DNA of 64,000 bases. It comes from Ruminococcus sp. GTDB lineage: Bacteria; Bacillota_I; Bacilli_A; RF39; UBA660. This document shows, one piece after another, positions 27,455 to 33,924 of this stretch. A program made the position numbers and the translations under genes. Within the stretch, counting starts at the first letter, position 1. Each line of letters begins with the position of its first letter. Location: positions 51,392 through 115,391 of the forward strand of contig JAMPHW010000001.1 in the NCBI GenBank assembly GCA_023663235.1. The letters are read 5' to 3'. The notes under the pieces are model-generated. The model did no database searches. It saw only the letters and a program-made list of their open reading frames with translations, and was not told the origin of the DNA.

Positions 27455-28807
27455 CTAAACTAAGTTTACTTTAAATGGATTATTTATTGTTCCATCACCA
27501 GTTAAAGTAACATCAGAACGTAGGTTAATTACAGGATAAATACCCCATGAATGAACTGTATTTCCATAAACAATTTCTCCTGTATTATTAACAATAAACA
27601 CATGAGAAGCAACTGCCGAAAACGGCGTCATCGTCCAATAATGACCACCACTATATAAATAATTATTTTCTATCCTAGTATCATTATTTCCATAAACAAG
27701 TCCAGCATAGCTTGCTTCATCAGCTGTTATTAATCCAACTGGATTTTCTAACACTCTGTTTCCTTTATTTGAATTTTTATATGTATATAAATCATCATTT
27801 ACCTGACACTTTAATGTAGGAGATTTTATTTTGCCATAAGCAAGTCTAACATTAGCAGCATAAACTGTATTTATTATATCAATACCACCTAAGCCATCTA
27901 TATATTCTGTACCAGAACTAGGCTGTCTATCTCCGCAAAATCCAGCATTTACATCTATTTTATCAAAAAATGAAGTACCCTGTCTTATATTTGAACTACT
28001 AAACCAACTATTTAAAGCATTATATAAAAGTGATGGCGTTTCTATACCATGAACTTTATGTTGCTCATAAAAATACCCAACATATTTATTATCATCATTA
28101 TTAGAATTAAATTGACTTATTATTCCAGTTGAGTGCATTAACCCATCATTAACTTCTCCATAATAAATTAATCTAATTGTACCATCACCATTTATTCTAA
28201 TAATACGCCAATAATATCCACCAAATTCTACCCAATTATCTAATGGTTCTCCAGCATAATAATAACTAGTTCCATCATCGTCAGGCGCAACATATACTGT
28301 TTTGTCTATTGGCGAATTATCGCTCGTTACCGCCTTATCAAACGGTAAATAATCATTTCTTCTAATATTAATATTACTAATATTAGAAAGTACATATTGA
28401 CACGCCACTCCACAATTATCATTCAACTTTTCTAAATAGAGAATACATTTAGAAGACTTACTTATCCCACTAAAAGTATGATTACCCATTTCATCAGTAT
28501 ATAATTTAACATCAACATCTTTATTATTTTTATTAGCCCCCTTATAACAATAACTTTTATTTTCATTTATTCTATAACCACTAGGTATTATAGTATTAAC
28601 ATCTTGTTCTACATTATCAAGATACAAAGCTACAATATTTATATCATAAGGACTTGATACAACTTTTCCTTCTGTTAATGGAATTGATGCAGTCATACGA
28701 TAATTTGCCTTACTTCCTATAAAATTTACTGTAACAGTAAGTACTACTACCATTATTAAGCCACACAAAAAATACTTCTTGCTATTAATATTTCTTTTTA
28801 ATTTCAT
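27455..28807 (-). CDS. Secreted protein paralog C
   Basis: The N-terminal 65 aa (signal anchor, ..SKANYRMTASIPLTEGKVVSSPYD) are about 80% identical to paralog B. Core YYYAGEPLDNWVEFGGYYWRIIRINGDGTIRLIYYG. C-terminus WGIYPVINLRSDVTLTGDGTINNPFKVNLV. Confidence 0.65.
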   Translation of the reverse strand: MKLKRNINSKKYFLCGLIMVVVLTVTVNFIGSKANYRMTASIPLTEGKVVSSPYDINIVALYLDNVEQDVNTIIPSGYRINENKSYCYKGANKNNKDVDVKLYTDEMGNHTFSGISKSSKCILYLEKLNDNCGVACQYVLSNISNINIRRNDYLPFDKAVTSDNSPIDKTVYVAPDDDGTSYYYAGEPLDNWVEFGGYYWRIIRINGDGTIRLIYYGEVNDGLMHSTGIISQFNSNNDDNKYVGYFYEQHKVHGIETPSLLYNALNSWFSSSNIRQGTSFFDKIDVNAGFCGDRQPSSGTEYIDGLGGIDIINTVYAANVRLAYGKIKSPTLKCQVNDDLYTYKNSNKGNRVLENPVGLITADEASYAGLVYGNNDTRIENNYLYSGGHYWTMTPFSAVASHVFIVNNTGEIVYGNTVHSWGIYPVINLRSDVTLTGDGTINNPFKVNLV

Positions 28808-28968: not shown

Positions 28969-29433
28969 GTGAATATTATGCATTATAGCGCAAAACTACA
29001 ATATCTAAGAGAAAAATTCGATTTAACTCAAACAGAAGCTGGAAAAATAATCAACCTAGATAGTGGCACATATAGTAATTACGAACATGAAGTGATATTA
29101 ATTCCTTTAAAACATTTAAATACACTATGTAATTATTACAATGTATCATTAGACTACATTTTTTCCTTTACAGAAGAAGTAAATTACAAAAATAGTGATA
29201 AAAATATAGATAAGAAAAAATCAGGAACAAGATTAAAAGAATTTAGAAAAGATAATAAATTAACACAAATTAAGTTAGCTAAAATTTTAAATATTGGTAA
29301 TGGAACAATTGCAGGATACGAAACTGGTAATTATTTAATAGCAACACCTTTCCTCTACACAATCTGTTCTAAATATCATATTTCTGCTGACTATCTCCTT
29401 GGTAAAACAGATAACCCAAAATACTTTAATTAA
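28969..29433 (+). CDS. Tandem double-HTH XRE-family regulator
   Basis: Two HTH_3-like segments (..LTQTEAGKIINLDSGTYSNYE.. and ..LTQIKLAKILNIGNGTIAGYETG..). Divergent from paralog C. Confidence 0.7.
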   Translation: MNIMHYSAKLQYLREKFDLTQTEAGKIINLDSGTYSNYEHEVILIPLKHLNTLCNYYNVSLDYIFSFTEEVNYKNSDKNIDKKKSGTRLKEFRKDNKLTQIKLAKILNIGNGTIAGYETGNYLIATPFLYTICSKYHISADYLLGKTDNPKYFN

Positions 29434-29439
29434 TTTTAA

Positions 29440-29475
29440 AACCTCATCTCTTTTTAAGAGATGAGGCTTTTATTA
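29440..29475. terminator. Bidirectional terminator between the regulator and leuS
   Basis: Hairpin cctcatctcttt-ttaa-gagatgagg followed by a T-run. Confidence 0.6.
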
Positions 29476-32319
29476 TCTTACTACAATATTAACAATTCTT
29501 CCCTTAATAACAATAACTTTAACAATTTCTTTACCATCAATATGCTTTTTAACATTATCTTCTTGTAAAGCTTTTTCTTTAATTGCATCCTCGTTATCAA
29601 GAGCATTTATTGTTACTTCTCCCCTAAGTTTACCATTTACTTGAACTCCGATAGTAAGTTCATTATCAATTGTTTTAGCTTCCTCATAAGTAGGCCAATC
29701 CATTTCAACAATTCTTTTAGTAAATCCGAGTTCTTCATTTAATTCTTCAGTTATATGAGGTGCTATTGGATTTAATAAGACTAATAAAGTTTGATAATCT
29801 TTCTTTGTAATATTTTCTTTTTCTTCATAAGCATTAGTTAAGATCATTAAACTAGATACTGCTGTATTATATTTCATTGTAGCTAAATCATTAGTAACTT
29901 TCTTAATAGTTTTATGAATTATATTTAAAAGAGAACTTGTATATTCATTACCATCTACTACTTTATTTTTTAATCTTTCAACTTTATCTAAGAAACGTTT
30001 ACACCCCTTTAGCCCATTATCACTCCATGTTGCATCTTTTTCATAATCGCCAATAAATAGTTCATAAGTTCTAAGAGCATCTGCGCCATATAATTTAACC
30101 ATATCATCAGGATTAATAACATTTCCTCTAGACTTACTCATTTTCTCTCCATTAGAACCTAAAATCATTCCATGAGCCACTCTCTTTTTAAATGGTTCTG
30201 GTGTTGGAACTAAACCTTGGTCATAAAGGAATTGATGCCAAAATCTTGCATATAATAAATGTCTTGTCGCATGTTCCATACCACCATTGTAGTAATCAAC
30301 CATACCCCAATATTTTAAAGCATCTTGACCTACAAATTCTTCATTATTATGAGCATCCATATATCTTAACCAATACCAACTTGAACCCGCCCAGTTAGGC
30401 ATAGTATCTGTTTCTCTTTCTGCATGACCACCACATTTAGGACAAGTAGTATTAACCCAATCAGTTATATTAGCTAAAGGCGACTCTCCTGTATCTGTTG
30501 GTTCATAATGTGCAACTGTTGGTAACAATACTGGTAATTCTTCTTCTGGAACTGGCACCCATCCACATTTATCACAATATACCATTGGAATTGGTTCGCC
30601 CCAGAATCTTTGACGTGAAAATATCCAATCTTGTAAACGATAATTAGTTTTTTTAATTCCAATTTTTTTATCTGTTAAATAATCAAGCATCTTATTAATA
30701 GCGTCTTCTTTATTTAAACCATCAAGAAACTCTGAATTAATATGAACGCCTTCATCAGTTAAAGCACCTTCACCGTTTATTACTCTTTCTGCATCGTATT
30801 TATGAGCTTGTGTTGTAAGCGTATCAATTAATTTATCACCATCTACCCAAACTACATCTGCTATATCTTGCTCTTCTTTTGCTATTTCCACTTGCTCTAA
30901 ACTATTTAATCTACCAATAATCGTATGACTTCTAATATGTCTATTTACATCTTTATGAGCAGCATAGAAATTATCATAATAAATAAAATCCATTTCTTTT
31001 ATTGAAGCTATATCTGTATAACCAGTTTCTTCTTTAACTTCTCTAATGCCTGCTTCAACAACACTTTCATTATCTTCAATACCACCCATAACAAAAGTTA
31101 CCCAATCAAATTTCTTATTATGTACACATAAATATTTATCCTCTATTGGATGCTTTAGTATAACATTAACAACTTCTCTATTTGTTGTTGGTTTATCATC
31201 TCTTATTTTAGAAGTACCTGTTCCATTAAAAGATTTAGCAATAACTTGTATAATAGGAATATTAAACTTTTTAGCAAAATCATAATCTCTATCATCATGT
31301 GCTGGTACAGCCATTATAGCTCCTGTTCCATAACTAGCTAAAACATAATCACTAATATAAATTGGAATTTCTGTATTATTAACAGGATTTATTGCAACTA
31401 ATCCTTCTAGTTTAACACCTGTTTTTTCTTTAGTTGCATCTGTTCTTTCAATTTCACTTTTTTCTTTAGCTTCATTTTGATACTTAACAACTTCATCTAA
31501 ATTTTTAATTCTGTCTTTATATTTCTCTAATAATTGATGTTCTGGTGACATAACCATAAAAGTTGCTCCAAATAATGTATCACATCTTGTTGTAAAAACT
31601 TTTAAAGTATCTTCTGTATCTTTTATTCTAAAGTCTACCTCTGCTCCAATACTCTTACCTATCCAATTAACTTGAGCTATTTTAATTTTATCTTCAAATT
31701 CTGTTTCTTTAAGTCCTTCTAATAATCTATCAGCATAACTACTCATTTTAAGTATCCATTGTGATTTTAATTTTTTAGTAACAGGACTTCCACATCTCTC
31801 GCATACTCCACCAGCCGCATCTTCATTAGATAGTCCTGTTTTACAATTAGGACACCAATTAATCTCTTTTTCAGCTTTATAAGCCATATCTTTCTTTACA
31901 AATTGTAAAAATTGCCATTGTGTCCATTTGTAATATTCTGGATCTGTTGTTGAAAATTCTCTCGACCAATCAAAAGACATACCTAAAGATTTTATTTGCC
32001 CTTTAAATGTTCCAATATTTTCTTTAACTGCATCAGCTGGATATATATGATTCTTTATTGCATATTGTTCTGCAGGAGCTCCAAAAGCATCCCATCCCAT
32101 TGGAAATAGAACATTATATCCTTGTAATCTTTTCATTCTAGCCATTGCATCAAGTGCTGAATAACTTCTAACATGACCTACATGTAACCCTGAACCACTT
32201 GGGTAAGGAAATTCTACTAAAATATAATATTTTTCTTTATCACTATTATTTTTAGCTTCAAAATAATGTCCTTTATCCCATATATCTTGCCATTTTTTCT
32301 CTATCTTATTTGTCTCCAT
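29473..32319 (-). CDS. leuS: Leucyl-tRNA synthetase with an inserted Nudix-hydrolase domain
   Basis: HIGH-region ..PYPSGSGLHVGHV.., editing motifs TTRCDT and AHDDRD, KMSKS. A roughly 150-aa insertion (residues 365-515) carries a perfect Nudix box GGIEDNESVVEAGIREVKEETGY. Confidence 0.95.
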   Translation of the reverse strand: METNKIEKKWQDIWDKGHYFEAKNNSDKEKYYILVEFPYPSGSGLHVGHVRSYSALDAMARMKRLQGYNVLFPMGWDAFGAPAEQYAIKNHIYPADAVKENIGTFKGQIKSLGMSFDWSREFSTTDPEYYKWTQWQFLQFVKKDMAYKAEKEINWCPNCKTGLSNEDAAGGVCERCGSPVTKKLKSQWILKMSSYADRLLEGLKETEFEDKIKIAQVNWIGKSIGAEVDFRIKDTEDTLKVFTTRCDTLFGATFMVMSPEHQLLEKYKDRIKNLDEVVKYQNEAKEKSEIERTDATKEKTGVKLEGLVAINPVNNTEIPIYISDYVLASYGTGAIMAVPAHDDRDYDFAKKFNIPIIQVIAKSFNGTGTSKIRDDKPTTNREVVNVILKHPIEDKYLCVHNKKFDWVTFVMGGIEDNESVVEAGIREVKEETGYTDIASIKEMDFIYYDNFYAAHKDVNRHIRSHTIIGRLNSLEQVEIAKEEQDIADVVWVDGDKLIDTLTTQAHKYDAERVINGEGALTDEGVHINSEFLDGLNKEDAINKMLDYLTDKKIGIKKTNYRLQDWIFSRQRFWGEPIPMVYCDKCGWVPVPEEELPVLLPTVAHYEPTDTGESPLANITDWVNTTCPKCGGHAERETDTMPNWAGSSWYWLRYMDAHNNEEFVGQDALKYWGMVDYYNGGMEHATRHLLYARFWHQFLYDQGLVPTPEPFKKRVAHGMILGSNGEKMSKSRGNVINPDDMVKLYGADALRTYELFIGDYEKDATWSDNGLKGCKRFLDKVERLKNKVVDGNEYTSSLLNIIHKTIKKVTNDLATMKYNTAVSSLMILTNAYEEKENITKKDYQTLLVLLNPIAPHITEELNEELGFTKRIVEMDWPTYEEAKTIDNELTIGVQVNGKLRGEVTINALDNEDAIKEKALQEDNVKKHIDGKEIVKVIVIKGRIVNIVVR

Positions 32320-32713
32320 TTTCTCTTTCCTCTTTCCTTTTTAAGTGTCTTCCATATAACTCATATAATGAATAAATTAAACCTAATAATAATACAAAAG
32401 CTATTAACATTTGCCATATTAATTTATAAGGAACAATCATTAAAATACTAGATACTATAGCAATTATAAAACTATTAATTAATGCTATGTCTCTAATTGC
32501 CTTATTCTTATTTATTTTCTTTTCACTTAACTTAAACTTAATCACCATATAATCAATTTCTTCAATACTCTTAACTTTCTTCTTCTTTCCTTTTTTTGTT
32601 TTGCCTTTATTATTAATTAAATTTAATCTTTTTTTAAGTATTAAATAATAATCTACTATAAAAACCACTATAAATAGTACTATAAAAGTAATTATTGCCA
32701 ACTTATAATTCAT
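32306..32713 (-). CDS. Small membrane protein
   Basis: 135 aa with two predicted TM helices; overlaps the leuS start by 14 nt. Confidence 0.4.
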   Translation of the reverse strand: MNYKLAIITFIVLFIVVFIVDYYLILKKRLNLINNKGKTKKGKKKKVKSIEEIDYMVIKFKLSEKKINKNKAIRDIALINSFIIAIVSSILMIVPYKLIWQMLIAFVLLLGLIYSLYELYGRHLKRKEERENGDK

Positions 32714-32716
32714 TTT

Positions 32717-33571
32717 TTATTTCTCCTTCATTAATTGTTTTTTATTTGTAAAATCTAAAGCATTTTCTTTAGTAACAACTTTTCTACCCAATTTTTCTTC
32801 AATGTTTTTTCTAGTAATTGATGCAATTTCTCCACCTTCACTAGCATCATGTCTTAAAGCTTGCATACCATTAGAATTGTTTGTCTTATGTAATTCTGTA
32901 GTTGTAACTTCTGCTAATGTAGTTAACGCTAATTCTAAAGGCGACATGTTATCTCTTAAATTTTGTTTCTCATTTAAACTTTTTAAATCTTTATGTTGAT
33001 TAACTGTTATGCCAAAAGCCTCTTTACTAATATCATTAGTTAAAATAGCAAAATCTTTAGGTGTTACAGCTCCTCTTTTCTCCCATTCTACTGTAAGATC
33101 ATTTCTAACGGAAATTCCTTTTATTCGAGCATTAGTCCACTCTTCCGAATAACCCTTTTTTAAATAAGTCTGTCTCGCTCTTTCAATAGCAAGTTCGGGA
33201 TTAATAACCTCTTGAACTCTTTCTTCTGCTAATCTAGCAAACCATTGTTTAAAAGGCTCCGCATTAGGACTAGGAATACTTTGTATTATTCTAAATATTG
33301 TTTCTCTATTAGCACAATCTGTTTTATAACATTTTCCATCTTTTTTTGATTGAAGTTTCAGTGCGTGACAATTTGTCACACACTCACTTTCCTCAGCTAA
33401 TAAACGCTGTTTTAACTTTCTCCAATAAGCACTCGAATCTTTACTTTCTGTTAAAATTTCTACAATATCAACTATTGAATAATACCACTCTCCATTGTAC
33501 TCTTGCTTTCTAATTCTATTATTTTGAAACAAAACAATATCATTATTTTCCACTTCAATTTTCTTTACCAT
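32717..33571 (-). CDS. Bro-N domain / DinD-like DNA-damage-inducible protein
   Basis: N-terminal Bro-N-like (..NDIVLFQNNRIR..EWYYSIVDIVEIL..). The C-terminal half matches the E. coli DinD pattern (..DFAILTNDISKEAFG..HKDLKSLNEKQNLRDNMSPLELA..). Confidence 0.65.
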   Translation of the reverse strand: MVKKIEVENNDIVLFQNNRIRKQEYNGEWYYSIVDIVEILTESKDSSAYWRKLKQRLLAEESECVTNCHALKLQSKKDGKCYKTDCANRETIFRIIQSIPSPNAEPFKQWFARLAEERVQEVINPELAIERARQTYLKKGYSEEWTNARIKGISVRNDLTVEWEKRGAVTPKDFAILTNDISKEAFGITVNQHKDLKSLNEKQNLRDNMSPLELALTTLAEVTTTELHKTNNSNGMQALRHDASEGGEIASITRKNIEEKLGRKVVTKENALDFTNKKQLMKEK

Positions 33572-33699
33572 AACTAAAACCGCCCTTCACTTAATATAAC
33601 ATTTATTTTCCATTACTAACTATAATCAAATTATATCATGCGAATATATGTATGTCAAACAAAATTATGCAAAGCAACAAATAATCTTCTAATAAAATA

Positions 33700-33860
33700 A
33701 AAAAGCAGTACCTAAAAGGGCGAATCATATCCGCGGTACCACCTTTATTTCTATCTTTAATTTGCCTATAAGGGAGCAATCCCATATACTCCAAAAAGCA
33801 AGTTCATAACCTTCTTTACTTGTTTGCACCACCCACAAGTTCTCTTTAAAAAGAATAAAT
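33700..33860 (-). other. GC-richer intergenic element with an imperfect hairpin plus T-run (possible terminator or small RNA)
   Basis: ggtaccgcggatatgattcgcccttttaggtactgctttttt on the minus strand, about 180 nt downstream of the GH31 stop. The GC content of this stretch stands out locally. Confidence 0.3.
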
Positions 33861-33924
33861 TATTACTACTCTTTTCTTCCACGTATTTACTATATTCTAC
33901 TAAATTTTATAATTATATGCAAGT

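Follow-up and report, generated by a model that had tools for sequence, protein, structure and literature searches.

A Nudix Hydrolase Domain Nested within the Editing Domain of a Bacterial Leucyl-tRNA Synthetase

The leuS gene and its embedded module

A 64,000-nucleotide stretch of contig JAMPHW010000001.1 (referred to here as the window) carries a gene, leuS, for a bacterial-type leucyl-tRNA synthetase (LeuRS) in which a Nudix hydrolase domain is embedded. A domain of this kind inside LeuRS had been proposed from the sequence of the window alone (referred to here as the original prediction). The gene and the parts of its product are as follows (window positions, strand, and LeuRS residue numbers):

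29473..32319 (-): leuS, bacterial-type leucyl-tRNA synthetase, 948 amino acids (aa), a single long open reading frame (ORF) identified by TIGR00396 and by its match to PDB entry 1H3N
31237..31668 (-): CP1 editing domain before the insert, aa 218-361, holding the TTRCDT and AHDDRD motifs (PF13603)
30766..31236 (-): inserted Nudix module, aa 362-518, 157 residues, delimited by alignment with insert-free relatives
30652..30765 (-): CP1 editing domain after the insert, approximately aa 519-556, which aligns with Thermus thermophilus LeuRS from residue 375 and with insert-free relatives
31180..31236 (-): conserved N-terminal extension of the module, KSFNGTGTSKIRDDKPTTN, with R381 directly after it, common to stand-alone homologues
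31018..31086 (-): Nudix box GGIEDNESVVEAGIREVKEETGY, the predicted catalytic metal-binding motif, aa 412-434 (from the translation)
30937..30969 (-): family-specific motif FYAAHKDVNRH, aa 451-461, located 17-27 residues past the box, where Nudix enzymes have their "X-loop" specificity region

The boundaries of the insert were obtained from an alignment with 120 close LeuRS, of which 49 (about 798 aa) are without the insert and 71 (937-1103 aa) carry it. The match to the PF13603 editing-domain profile breaks off at profile position 144 (of 185), with positions 2-144 matching aa 218-364; the T. thermophilus LeuRS aligns to the window LeuRS in two blocks (residues 7-364 and then 375-582); and the insert site of a close insert-free relative reads VIQ-GDISNQ-AFVLDGIHINS. 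On the basis of these three observations, the module is placed inside CP1, where it is judged to replace a surface loop of 6-10 residues (residues 365-374 in T. thermophilus; GDISNQ in the insert-free relative). The original prediction had placed about 150 extra residues (365-515) after the end of CP1, ahead of the segment that follows it. The translation is exactly as it was quoted there, the boundaries are refined to aa 362-518 by the insert-free relatives, and the location has to be revised, since the interrupted profile and the T. thermophilus alignment nest the insert within CP1. An alignment with LeuRS from related Clostridia had also been proposed; insert-bearing and insert-free proteins were both found, among relatives that are not clearly Clostridia by label.

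The full-length protein matches Pfam PF00293 (NUDIX) at 40.7 bits (E, 2.9e-10) and the module segment on its own at 43.6 bits, both well over the cut-off of 21.1, and the Nudix motif is therefore not a chance occurrence. The sequence GGIEDNESVVEAGIREVKEETGY agrees with GX5EX7REUXEEXGU at every defined position, as the original prediction had stated. An AlphaFold2 model of the module segment, built with a homologue alignment, has a predicted local distance difference test score (pLDDT) of 92 and a predicted template-modeling score (pTM) of 0.85; the model of full-length LeuRS has a pLDDT of 87. Foldseek comparison of the module model with the PDB returned 481 matches at an E value of ≤1e-3, and all of the best 50 are Nudix enzymes, headed by Enterococcus faecalis 2AZW with a target-normalized template-modeling score (TMt) of 0.82. 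The claim of a Nudix domain inside LeuRS is thus upheld by the profile score on the insert alone, by the independent Nudix fold of the model, and by the conserved catalytic glutamates described below. The two outcomes that had been named as counting against the claim, namely, the lack of a Nudix fold and the lack of conserved catalytic glutamates, were looked for, and neither holds.

We considered whether the insert could be an artifact or a self-removing element. It might stem from chimeric assembly, it might be a separate gene joined by a frameshift, or it might be removed from the protein like an intein; we give these possibilities next to no probability. The module is in frame within one ORF, both in the window and in independent NCBI, ENA, JGI, and Logan assemblies. 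Its codon usage, GC content, and GC content at third codon positions (GC3) equal those of the host gene. The junctions (VIAK/SFNG on the N-terminal side and VING/EGAL on the C-terminal side) lack the Cys/Ser/Thr and His-Asn-Cys/Ser/Thr signatures of inteins, and the fold is that of Nudix proteins, not Hint. Intein, artifact, and frameshift are all ruled out by junction residues, fold, independent assemblies, and codon statistics.

Apart from the insert, the protein has the features of a bacterial LeuRS. TIGR00396 (leuS_bact) matches with 952.3 bits (cut-off, 548.4), its alignment being divided in two by the insert, and the T. thermophilus LeuRS (PDB 1H3N) is collinear with the window LeuRS over its full length (E, 1.7e-203). 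Pfam domains in the 948-aa product are the class I synthetase core, the LeuRS editing domain, NUDIX, and the anticodon-binding domain. The class I signatures are HVGH (aa 46-49) and KMSKS (aa 726-730), and the editing-site motifs are the T-rich TTRCDT (aa 243-248) and AHDDRD (aa 340-345), within which T243, T244, R245, D247, T248, A340, H341, D342, R344, and D345 are invariant in our LeuRS alignment (A1). Of 46 Nudix-bearing LeuRS of ≥900 aa from across the family, 42 retain both editing motifs. A role of the Nudix domain as a substitute for a dead editing site is ruled out, as these motifs are intact in the window LeuRS and in the 42 proteins. The leucine-specific domain is missing from the window LeuRS (at aa 724-726); T. 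thermophilus residues ~583-636 have no counterpart there.

Two further features lie upstream of leuS:

33713..33890 (-): T-box leader with a Leu (CUU) specifier, RF00230 match of 97.4 bits (gathering score, 93)
32306..32713 (-): small predicted membrane ORF, 135 aa, lysine-rich, overlapping the leuS start by 14 nucleotides

The specifier region of the T-box reads GAA-CUU-G, with CUU coding for Leu. Four insert-bearing relatives (L013, L010, L008, and L011) have the T-box ahead of the small membrane ORF and then leuS, and the insert-free relative L014 has the small ORF followed by leuS, with no T-box detected. Syntenic small ORFs upstream of leuS encode 137 aa (L013), 131 aa (L014), and 114 aa (L010), and the 135-aa ORF of the window has no Pfam match. 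Given the TIGR00396 score, the intact motifs, the Leu T-box, and the synteny common to insert-bearing and insert-free relatives, we take leuS, as judged within the window, to be an orthologous, housekeeping, T-box-regulated LeuRS gene with predicted synthetic and editing functions intact at the level of motifs, in which the insert was acquired or lost without a change of locus.

A Bro-N domain ORF (PF02498; 32717-33571, minus strand) lies between the T-box and the small ORF of the window, with its own TTGACA-17-TATAAT-like promoter ahead. In the relatives, the Leu T-box leader stands directly ahead of the small membrane ORF, with no Bro-N ORF between them, and the Bro-N ORF seems to have entered the leuS leader region (32717-33890) recently. 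Downstream of leuS are a 450-aa ORF (27455-28807, minus strand) with an N-terminal hydrophobic segment and no Pfam family and, adjoining it, a gene for a protein with two XRE-type helix-turn-helix domains (28969-29433, plus strand). Same-strand ORFs (e.g., 562, 409, 722, and 441 aa) at approximately 40000-62000 on the minus strand resemble a prophage morphogenesis block by ORF size and order only.

Selection, distribution, and turnover of the module

The ratio of nonsynonymous to synonymous substitution (dN/dS) was estimated pairwise between the window leuS and that of L013, a 94% identical relative (dS, 0.49-0.73), and was 0.096 for the module versus 0.034 and 0.067 for the two parts of the LeuRS body; the module is thus under purifying selection. 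Of the 71 insert-bearing close relatives, 69 have a strict Nudix box, the free positions of which vary. For a family-wide view, 346 modules were clustered into 62 representatives sharing <45% identity. E427, E430, and E431 are 97-100% conserved among these diverse representatives (E430, 100%; E431, 98%). R381, G412, G413, K456, N459, R460, E483, and W491 are conserved as well, and the strict box is retained in 295 of the 346 modules, including the window copy. We are therefore highly confident that the module is a genuine, selected Nudix domain in a functional LeuRS, with catalytic competence that is predicted from these patterns; a decaying or purely structural insert is judged not to fit the selection and conservation results. 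The suggestion in the original prediction that the domain might be a degenerate regulatory module is disfavored by the conserved catalytic residues. A related explanation would make the Nudix fold a noncatalytic spacer, a ligand sensor, or a protein-interaction surface. Some second copies do have degenerate boxes (e.g., R to A and E to Q in P0241_2 and P0242_2), and Nudix-fold proteins with nonenzymatic roles are known (PMC5389931). However, the strict box of the window copy and of most of the family, the near-invariant E430 and E431, and the low dN/dS of the module all speak against this explanation, to which we assign very little probability.

An exhaustive search with the module among 1.84 billion cluster representatives gave 372 matches at an E value of ≤1e-3, and the best 148 of these were classified as follows:

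LeuRS or LeuRS fragments: 107 representatives
Stand-alone size: 30 representatives
ProRS-linked group: 6 representatives
Other: 5 representatives

Within LeuRS, mapping of the flanks revealed at least six insertion sites (window LeuRS numbering: ~203-207, 232-238, 362/518, ~531, ~582, and 623-635), and a protein may carry one, two, or three Nudix copies. The site used in the window, 362/518, holds 182 modules. The original prediction knew of no LeuRS-Nudix fusion; these 182 site-equivalent modules, together with many other arrangements, are present but unannotated in public sequence data. In P0323 (643 aa), the module lies in an archaeal/eukaryote-type ProRS between the anticodon-binding and C-terminal ProRS-C_1 domains, and P0267, P0257, and P0331 are fragments of this type. 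The module of MCM1052425.1, a protein from a metagenome-assembled genome (MAG) labeled "Ruminococcus sp.," has 100% identity to the window module. Related leuS loci come from MAGs deposited as uncultured Bacilli, Mollicutes, or Clostridia bacterium (depositors' labels), and the window itself has a GC content of 28% and stops that are mostly TAA. The "Ruminococcus sp." label appears doubtful given this GC content and the labels of the related loci.

The stand-alone homologues (~158 aa) are 56-64% identical to the module and span it from end to end, including the F-G-G...R...DKP.T.R stretch. In an alignment of embedded and free forms (A2), F10, G12, and G14 of the N-terminal extension are ≥90% conserved and R27 is invariant, in both forms alike. 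In four stand-alone protein clusters, from Saccharibacteria-like contigs, the Nudix gene is separated by 70-130 bp from a downstream, co-oriented thrS, after which comes miaA. The gap of 70-130 bp suggests an operon with the ThrRS gene. The loci L001-L004 and L015-L023 have the gene order YgjV-like gene, variable gene, Nudix, thrS, and miaA, and because this order is common to them, the four thrS-linked clusters count as few independent observations. A fifth stand-alone homologue, labeled Candidatus Saccharibacteria, has another context, with HIT, PAP2, CdiA_C, and QueH genes nearby. As far as can be judged from this distribution, the Nudix subfamily is almost dedicated to aminoacyl-tRNA synthetases.

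Other domains and names were encountered in the same set of proteins. P0264/P0389-P0393 (1330 aa; a six-member cluster from Candidatus Pace(i)bacterota) has a Ham1/RdgB ITPase domain at aa 984-1167 in addition to a CP1 Nudix domain, and the LeuRS P0244 and P0341 have one or two alpha/beta-hydrolase (Ser_hydrolase) domains besides Nudix. NCBI names for such LeuRS include "class I tRNA ligase family protein" and even "RdgB/HAM1 family ... pyrophosphatase"; LeuRS of this kind are thus stored in public databases under generic or misleading names. Several sequences (P0291, P0361, P0310, P0381, P0362, and similar ones) have Trp at invariant-Gly positions ("EETW" and "VVWWVEE"), which suggests that genes of organisms with UGA=Gly (code 25) were translated with a UGA=Trp table, and many 200-300 aa proteins of the "PF13603+PF00293" type may be pieces of recoded leuS genes.

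To look for a phage origin, the module was compared by tblastn with 50,697 phage genomes, which gave no match, and a scan of IMG/VR gave generic Nudix-box matches only, with no relatives of the module. NCBIfam has no model for a LeuRS-Nudix fusion. No description of a synthetase-Nudix fusion was found in the portions of the literature reached by full-text searches, and the words "tRNA" and "synthetase" were not found in the portion of the Nudix-clan review (PMC5389931) available to us. Synthetases with accessory domains and the Nudix superfamily are known already; what is unusual is the triple nesting, the multisite and multicopy recurrence, and the cassette-like turnover described next.

On a neighbor-joining tree of LeuRS bodies only, insert-free proteins nest among insert-bearing ones, and parsimony requires at least eight presence/absence changes of the insert; the tree has no support values, and this count is approximate. 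Identity of the module to that of the window is decoupled from identity of the LeuRS body in the following proteins:

P0124: body identity, 84%; module identity, 26%
P0122: body identity, 86%; module identity, 56%
P0193: body identity, 65%; module identity, 75%
P0200: body identity, 64%; module identity, 74%

The P0124 module belongs to a second subtype, marked by "GT(I/R)K" at the start of the box, which occupies the same site as the window module in P0124, P0150, P0158, and P0214. In the 1100-aa proteins P0196, P0200, and P0208, the second subtype lies ~12 residues further on (after "HINS"), and the first subtype is at the window's site. Comparison of insert-bearing with insert-free proteins revealed no column of the LeuRS body with a fixed difference, i.e., no co-adapted interface was detected. 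We read this as indicating a putatively autonomous, loosely tethered domain that is exchanged between leuS alleles, probably by recombination through conserved flanks, and that is dispensable on short evolutionary timescales.

Close relatives from dense gut communities differ in whether they have the insert and in its subtype, which would also be in keeping with self-protection, in which the module would hydrolyze a nucleotide-type antibiotic or toxin aimed at the synthetase (e.g., an aminoacyl-adenylate mimic). The IleRS with an inserted N-acetyltransferase (NCBIfam NF040702), for which a comparable protective role might be supposed, offers a precedent for catalytic inserts in class I synthetases, and the serine-hydrolase inserts in the same LeuRS family point in the same direction. 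However, known adenylate-mimic inhibitors are without the pyrophosphate bond cut by Nudix enzymes, there are no biosynthetic or immunity genes near the window leuS, and the idea is entirely inferential; we consider it very unlikely.

Proposed function and competing explanations

Synthetases make diadenosine tetraphosphate (Ap4A) from aminoacyl-adenylate and ATP, and for this reason a tethered hydrolase of Ap4A-type compounds or other nucleoside polyphosphates was chosen as the likeliest function of the module. According to this proposal, the self-contained Nudix domain, which has been inserted at the gene level into the CP1 surface loop of a housekeeping LeuRS, would be an active Mg2+-dependent pyrophosphohydrolase that works next to the synthetase, and its substrate would be a nucleoside polyphosphate connected with the chemistry of aminoacylation. 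The likeliest substrates would be dinucleoside polyphosphates (Ap4A and Ap3A) or a related adenine-nucleotide polyphosphate, and dinucleoside polyphosphates would be converted to mononucleotides where they are produced. As an overall account, a selected Nudix domain in a functional LeuRS acting on an aminoacylation-linked nucleoside polyphosphate is our best explanation, and we give it an even chance of being correct. The assignment of the substrate itself to Ap4A-type compounds or nucleoside polyphosphates is more tentative and somewhat doubtful.

Several substrate leads are consistent with this assignment. Among the Foldseek matches listed, the structural neighbors include the Ap4A hydrolases CT771, Rv2985, and Aquifex aq_158, as well as RppH, with one entry bound to Ap4A, and the lupin Ap4A hydrolase is among the PDB sequence matches of the module. 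The best NCBIfam Nudix match is the RppH model NF001936, with 29.2 bits, below its cut-off of 118. PMC5389931 places the specificity region of Nudix enzymes, the X-loop, ~17 residues past the box, where Ap(n)A hydrolases carry a Tyr (the motif of Dunn et al.). The module has an invariant Phe at +17 and a near-invariant Tyr at +18, which may be equivalent in position to the Tyr of Ap(n)A hydrolases. Residues of the same region are conserved family-wide (K456, 97%; N459, 94%; R460, 81%) and would suit a polyphosphate chain. Other Nudix subfamilies were looked for through their own marks. The Pro of ADP-ribose pyrophosphatases at ~15-16 past the box is not found in the module, in which +15 and +16 are D and N, and NUDT5 profile matches are restricted to the box. 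The array SQPWPFPxS of NADH pyrophosphatases is absent from the module sequence, and no NCBIfam MutT model is matched by the window module at an E value of ≤0.01. Searches of PDB sequences with the module alone and with the family profile gave weak, box-restricted matches only, with no subfamily assignment.

Other observations weigh against an Ap4A-type hydrolase tied to aminoacylation. The score of 29 bits against the RppH equivalog is far from the cut-off of 118 bits, and the +17 residue is Phe, not Tyr. The nucleoside triphosphate (NTP) pyrophosphohydrolases YfaO/NudI, NudB, and MutT1 are equally good structural neighbors, all PDB matches have <20% identity, and profile matches cover little beyond the box. 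LeuRS of the same family also carry Ham1/ITPase or alpha/beta-hydrolase inserts, which fit general house-cleaning equally, and the body-only tree indicates that the module is dispensable over short evolutionary times.

House-cleaning is the main rival explanation. The Nudix domain would sanitize the nucleotide pool in the manner of MutT, NudI, or ITPase by clearing damaged or noncanonical NTPs, with no mechanistic link to LeuRS, and would ride on an essential, well-expressed gene of a streamlined genome that ensures its expression. The Ham1/RdgB ITPase beside Nudix in P0264 (Candidatus Paceibacterota) and the alpha/beta-hydrolases in P0244 and P0341 favor it, as do the NTP pyrophosphohydrolases and MutT1 among the top structural neighbors. 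A precise geometry seems not to be required, given the many insertion sites and the absence of co-adapted body positions, and the hosts appear to be reduced-genome lineages (the candidate phyla radiation [CPR] and Mollicutes-like Bacilli). However, the subfamily is nearly confined to LeuRS (107 of the best 148 representatives), to ProRS, or to positions adjacent to thrS and is not spread over other essential proteins, and the window module approaches no NCBIfam MutT, NudI, or other equivalog. Taken together, house-cleaning is unlikely, with perhaps one chance in a handful.

A second alternative is that LeuRS and ProRS serve as a tRNA or RNA platform for an RNA-directed Nudix enzyme, which would remove 5' triphosphate, NAD, or Np4A caps in the manner of RppH or NudC or a toxin-placed adduct of the pyrophosphate or ADP-ribose type on the tRNA acceptor end. 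In NCBIfam, the module comes closest, albeit weakly, to RppH and YtkD, and RppH-RNA complexes are among its structural neighbors. Most insertions lie in or beside CP1, the domain which is established to receive the tRNA 3' end in LeuRS, and the fast gain, loss, and swapping of the module resemble those of accessory or conflict-type genes. These similarity scores are, however, far under the family cut-offs (29 versus 118 bits). By established chemistry, mature tRNA has a 5' monophosphate, and Nudix cleavage of a 3'-pyrophosphate still leaves a blocked 3'-phosphate. Stand-alone homologues exist without an RNA-binding partner domain, and no toxin or defense genes were consistently near those stand-alone homologues that were examined. 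We regard an RNA-directed activity as quite improbable.

A broader conjecture, which we also think improbable, though slightly less so, is that the subfamily is a horizontally exchangeable "plug-in" cassette for the synthetases of host-associated, reduced-genome bacteria, repeatedly inserted, swapped, and lost through a conflict or stress function centered on synthetases and tRNA. Candidate functions of such a cassette are the removal of a toxin-installed adduct or pyrophosphate from the tRNA acceptor end, the destruction of a nucleotide-type synthetase poison, and the destruction of an Np4N alarmone or RNA cap that the synthetase itself produces. If this conjecture is true, translation quality control would include a previously unknown class of accessory activities that act in cis.

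Few enzymes are as conserved as the aminoacyl-tRNA synthetases, which to our knowledge have rarely acquired whole extra catalytic domains in bacteria. The window LeuRS contains a complete, selected hydrolase nested in a proofreading domain that is itself inserted in a catalytic domain. The recurrent association with synthetases points to a possible, previously unrecognized partnership between Nudix enzymes and aminoacylation, whether through Ap4A and other by-products, RNA-end chemistry, or nucleotide sanitation. With insert-bearing and insert-free orthologues whose bodies are ~85% identical, the family offers a natural and genetically tractable means of asking whether dinucleoside polyphosphates made by synthetases have to be disposed of locally.

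Comparison with known systems

The window LeuRS is like other bacterial LeuRS (1H3N; Escherichia coli 4AQ7/4ARC) in its HIGH and KMSKS signatures and in the T-rich region and conserved Asp motifs of its editing site, and its T-box control is typical of Firmicutes. Unlike the T. thermophilus LeuRS, it has a domain of 157 aa in place of the 365-374 loop and no leucine-specific domain (T. thermophilus ~583-636). The plasticity of CP1 in low-GC, host-associated lineages is also seen in the LeuRS of Mycoplasma mobile (PDB 3ZIU, among the sequence matches), in which CP1 is reduced or missing. In contrast to Mollicute LeuRS with lost editing, the window LeuRS and 42 of the 46 Nudix-bearing LeuRS keep their editing motifs.

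The module shares its fold with small Nudix enzymes (CT771 4MPO, aq_158 3I7U, Rv2985 9CXX, RppH 4S2Y/7SP3, YfaO/NudI 3OGA/6DT3, and 2AZW), with template-modeling scores of 0.7-0.8 normalized to the target, and like them it has a complete box and an X-loop aromatic residue ~17-18 residues past the box. It differs from these enzymes in its low identity (<20%), its own N-terminal extension (F-G-G...R), its HK..NRH motif, and its mostly synthetase-embedded occurrence. An architectural parallel is the IleRS with an embedded N-acetyltransferase (NF040702, "ileS_w_GNAT"), which is recognized as a database model only. As in the window LeuRS, a class I synthetase of the Ile/Leu/Val group carries an unrelated catalytic insert; the two cases differ in synthetase, inserted fold, and chemistry.

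In animals, a LysRS-Ap4A-NUDT2 axis is known, and in bacteria the Ap4A hydrolases ApaH, YqeK, and RppH clear dinucleoside polyphosphate made by synthetases. The pairing in these systems would be the same as that proposed for the module. There, however, the hydrolase is not part of the synthetase, and the synthetase studied most is the class II LysRS, whereas the module of the window is nested in LeuRS, and its substrate is a proposed one.

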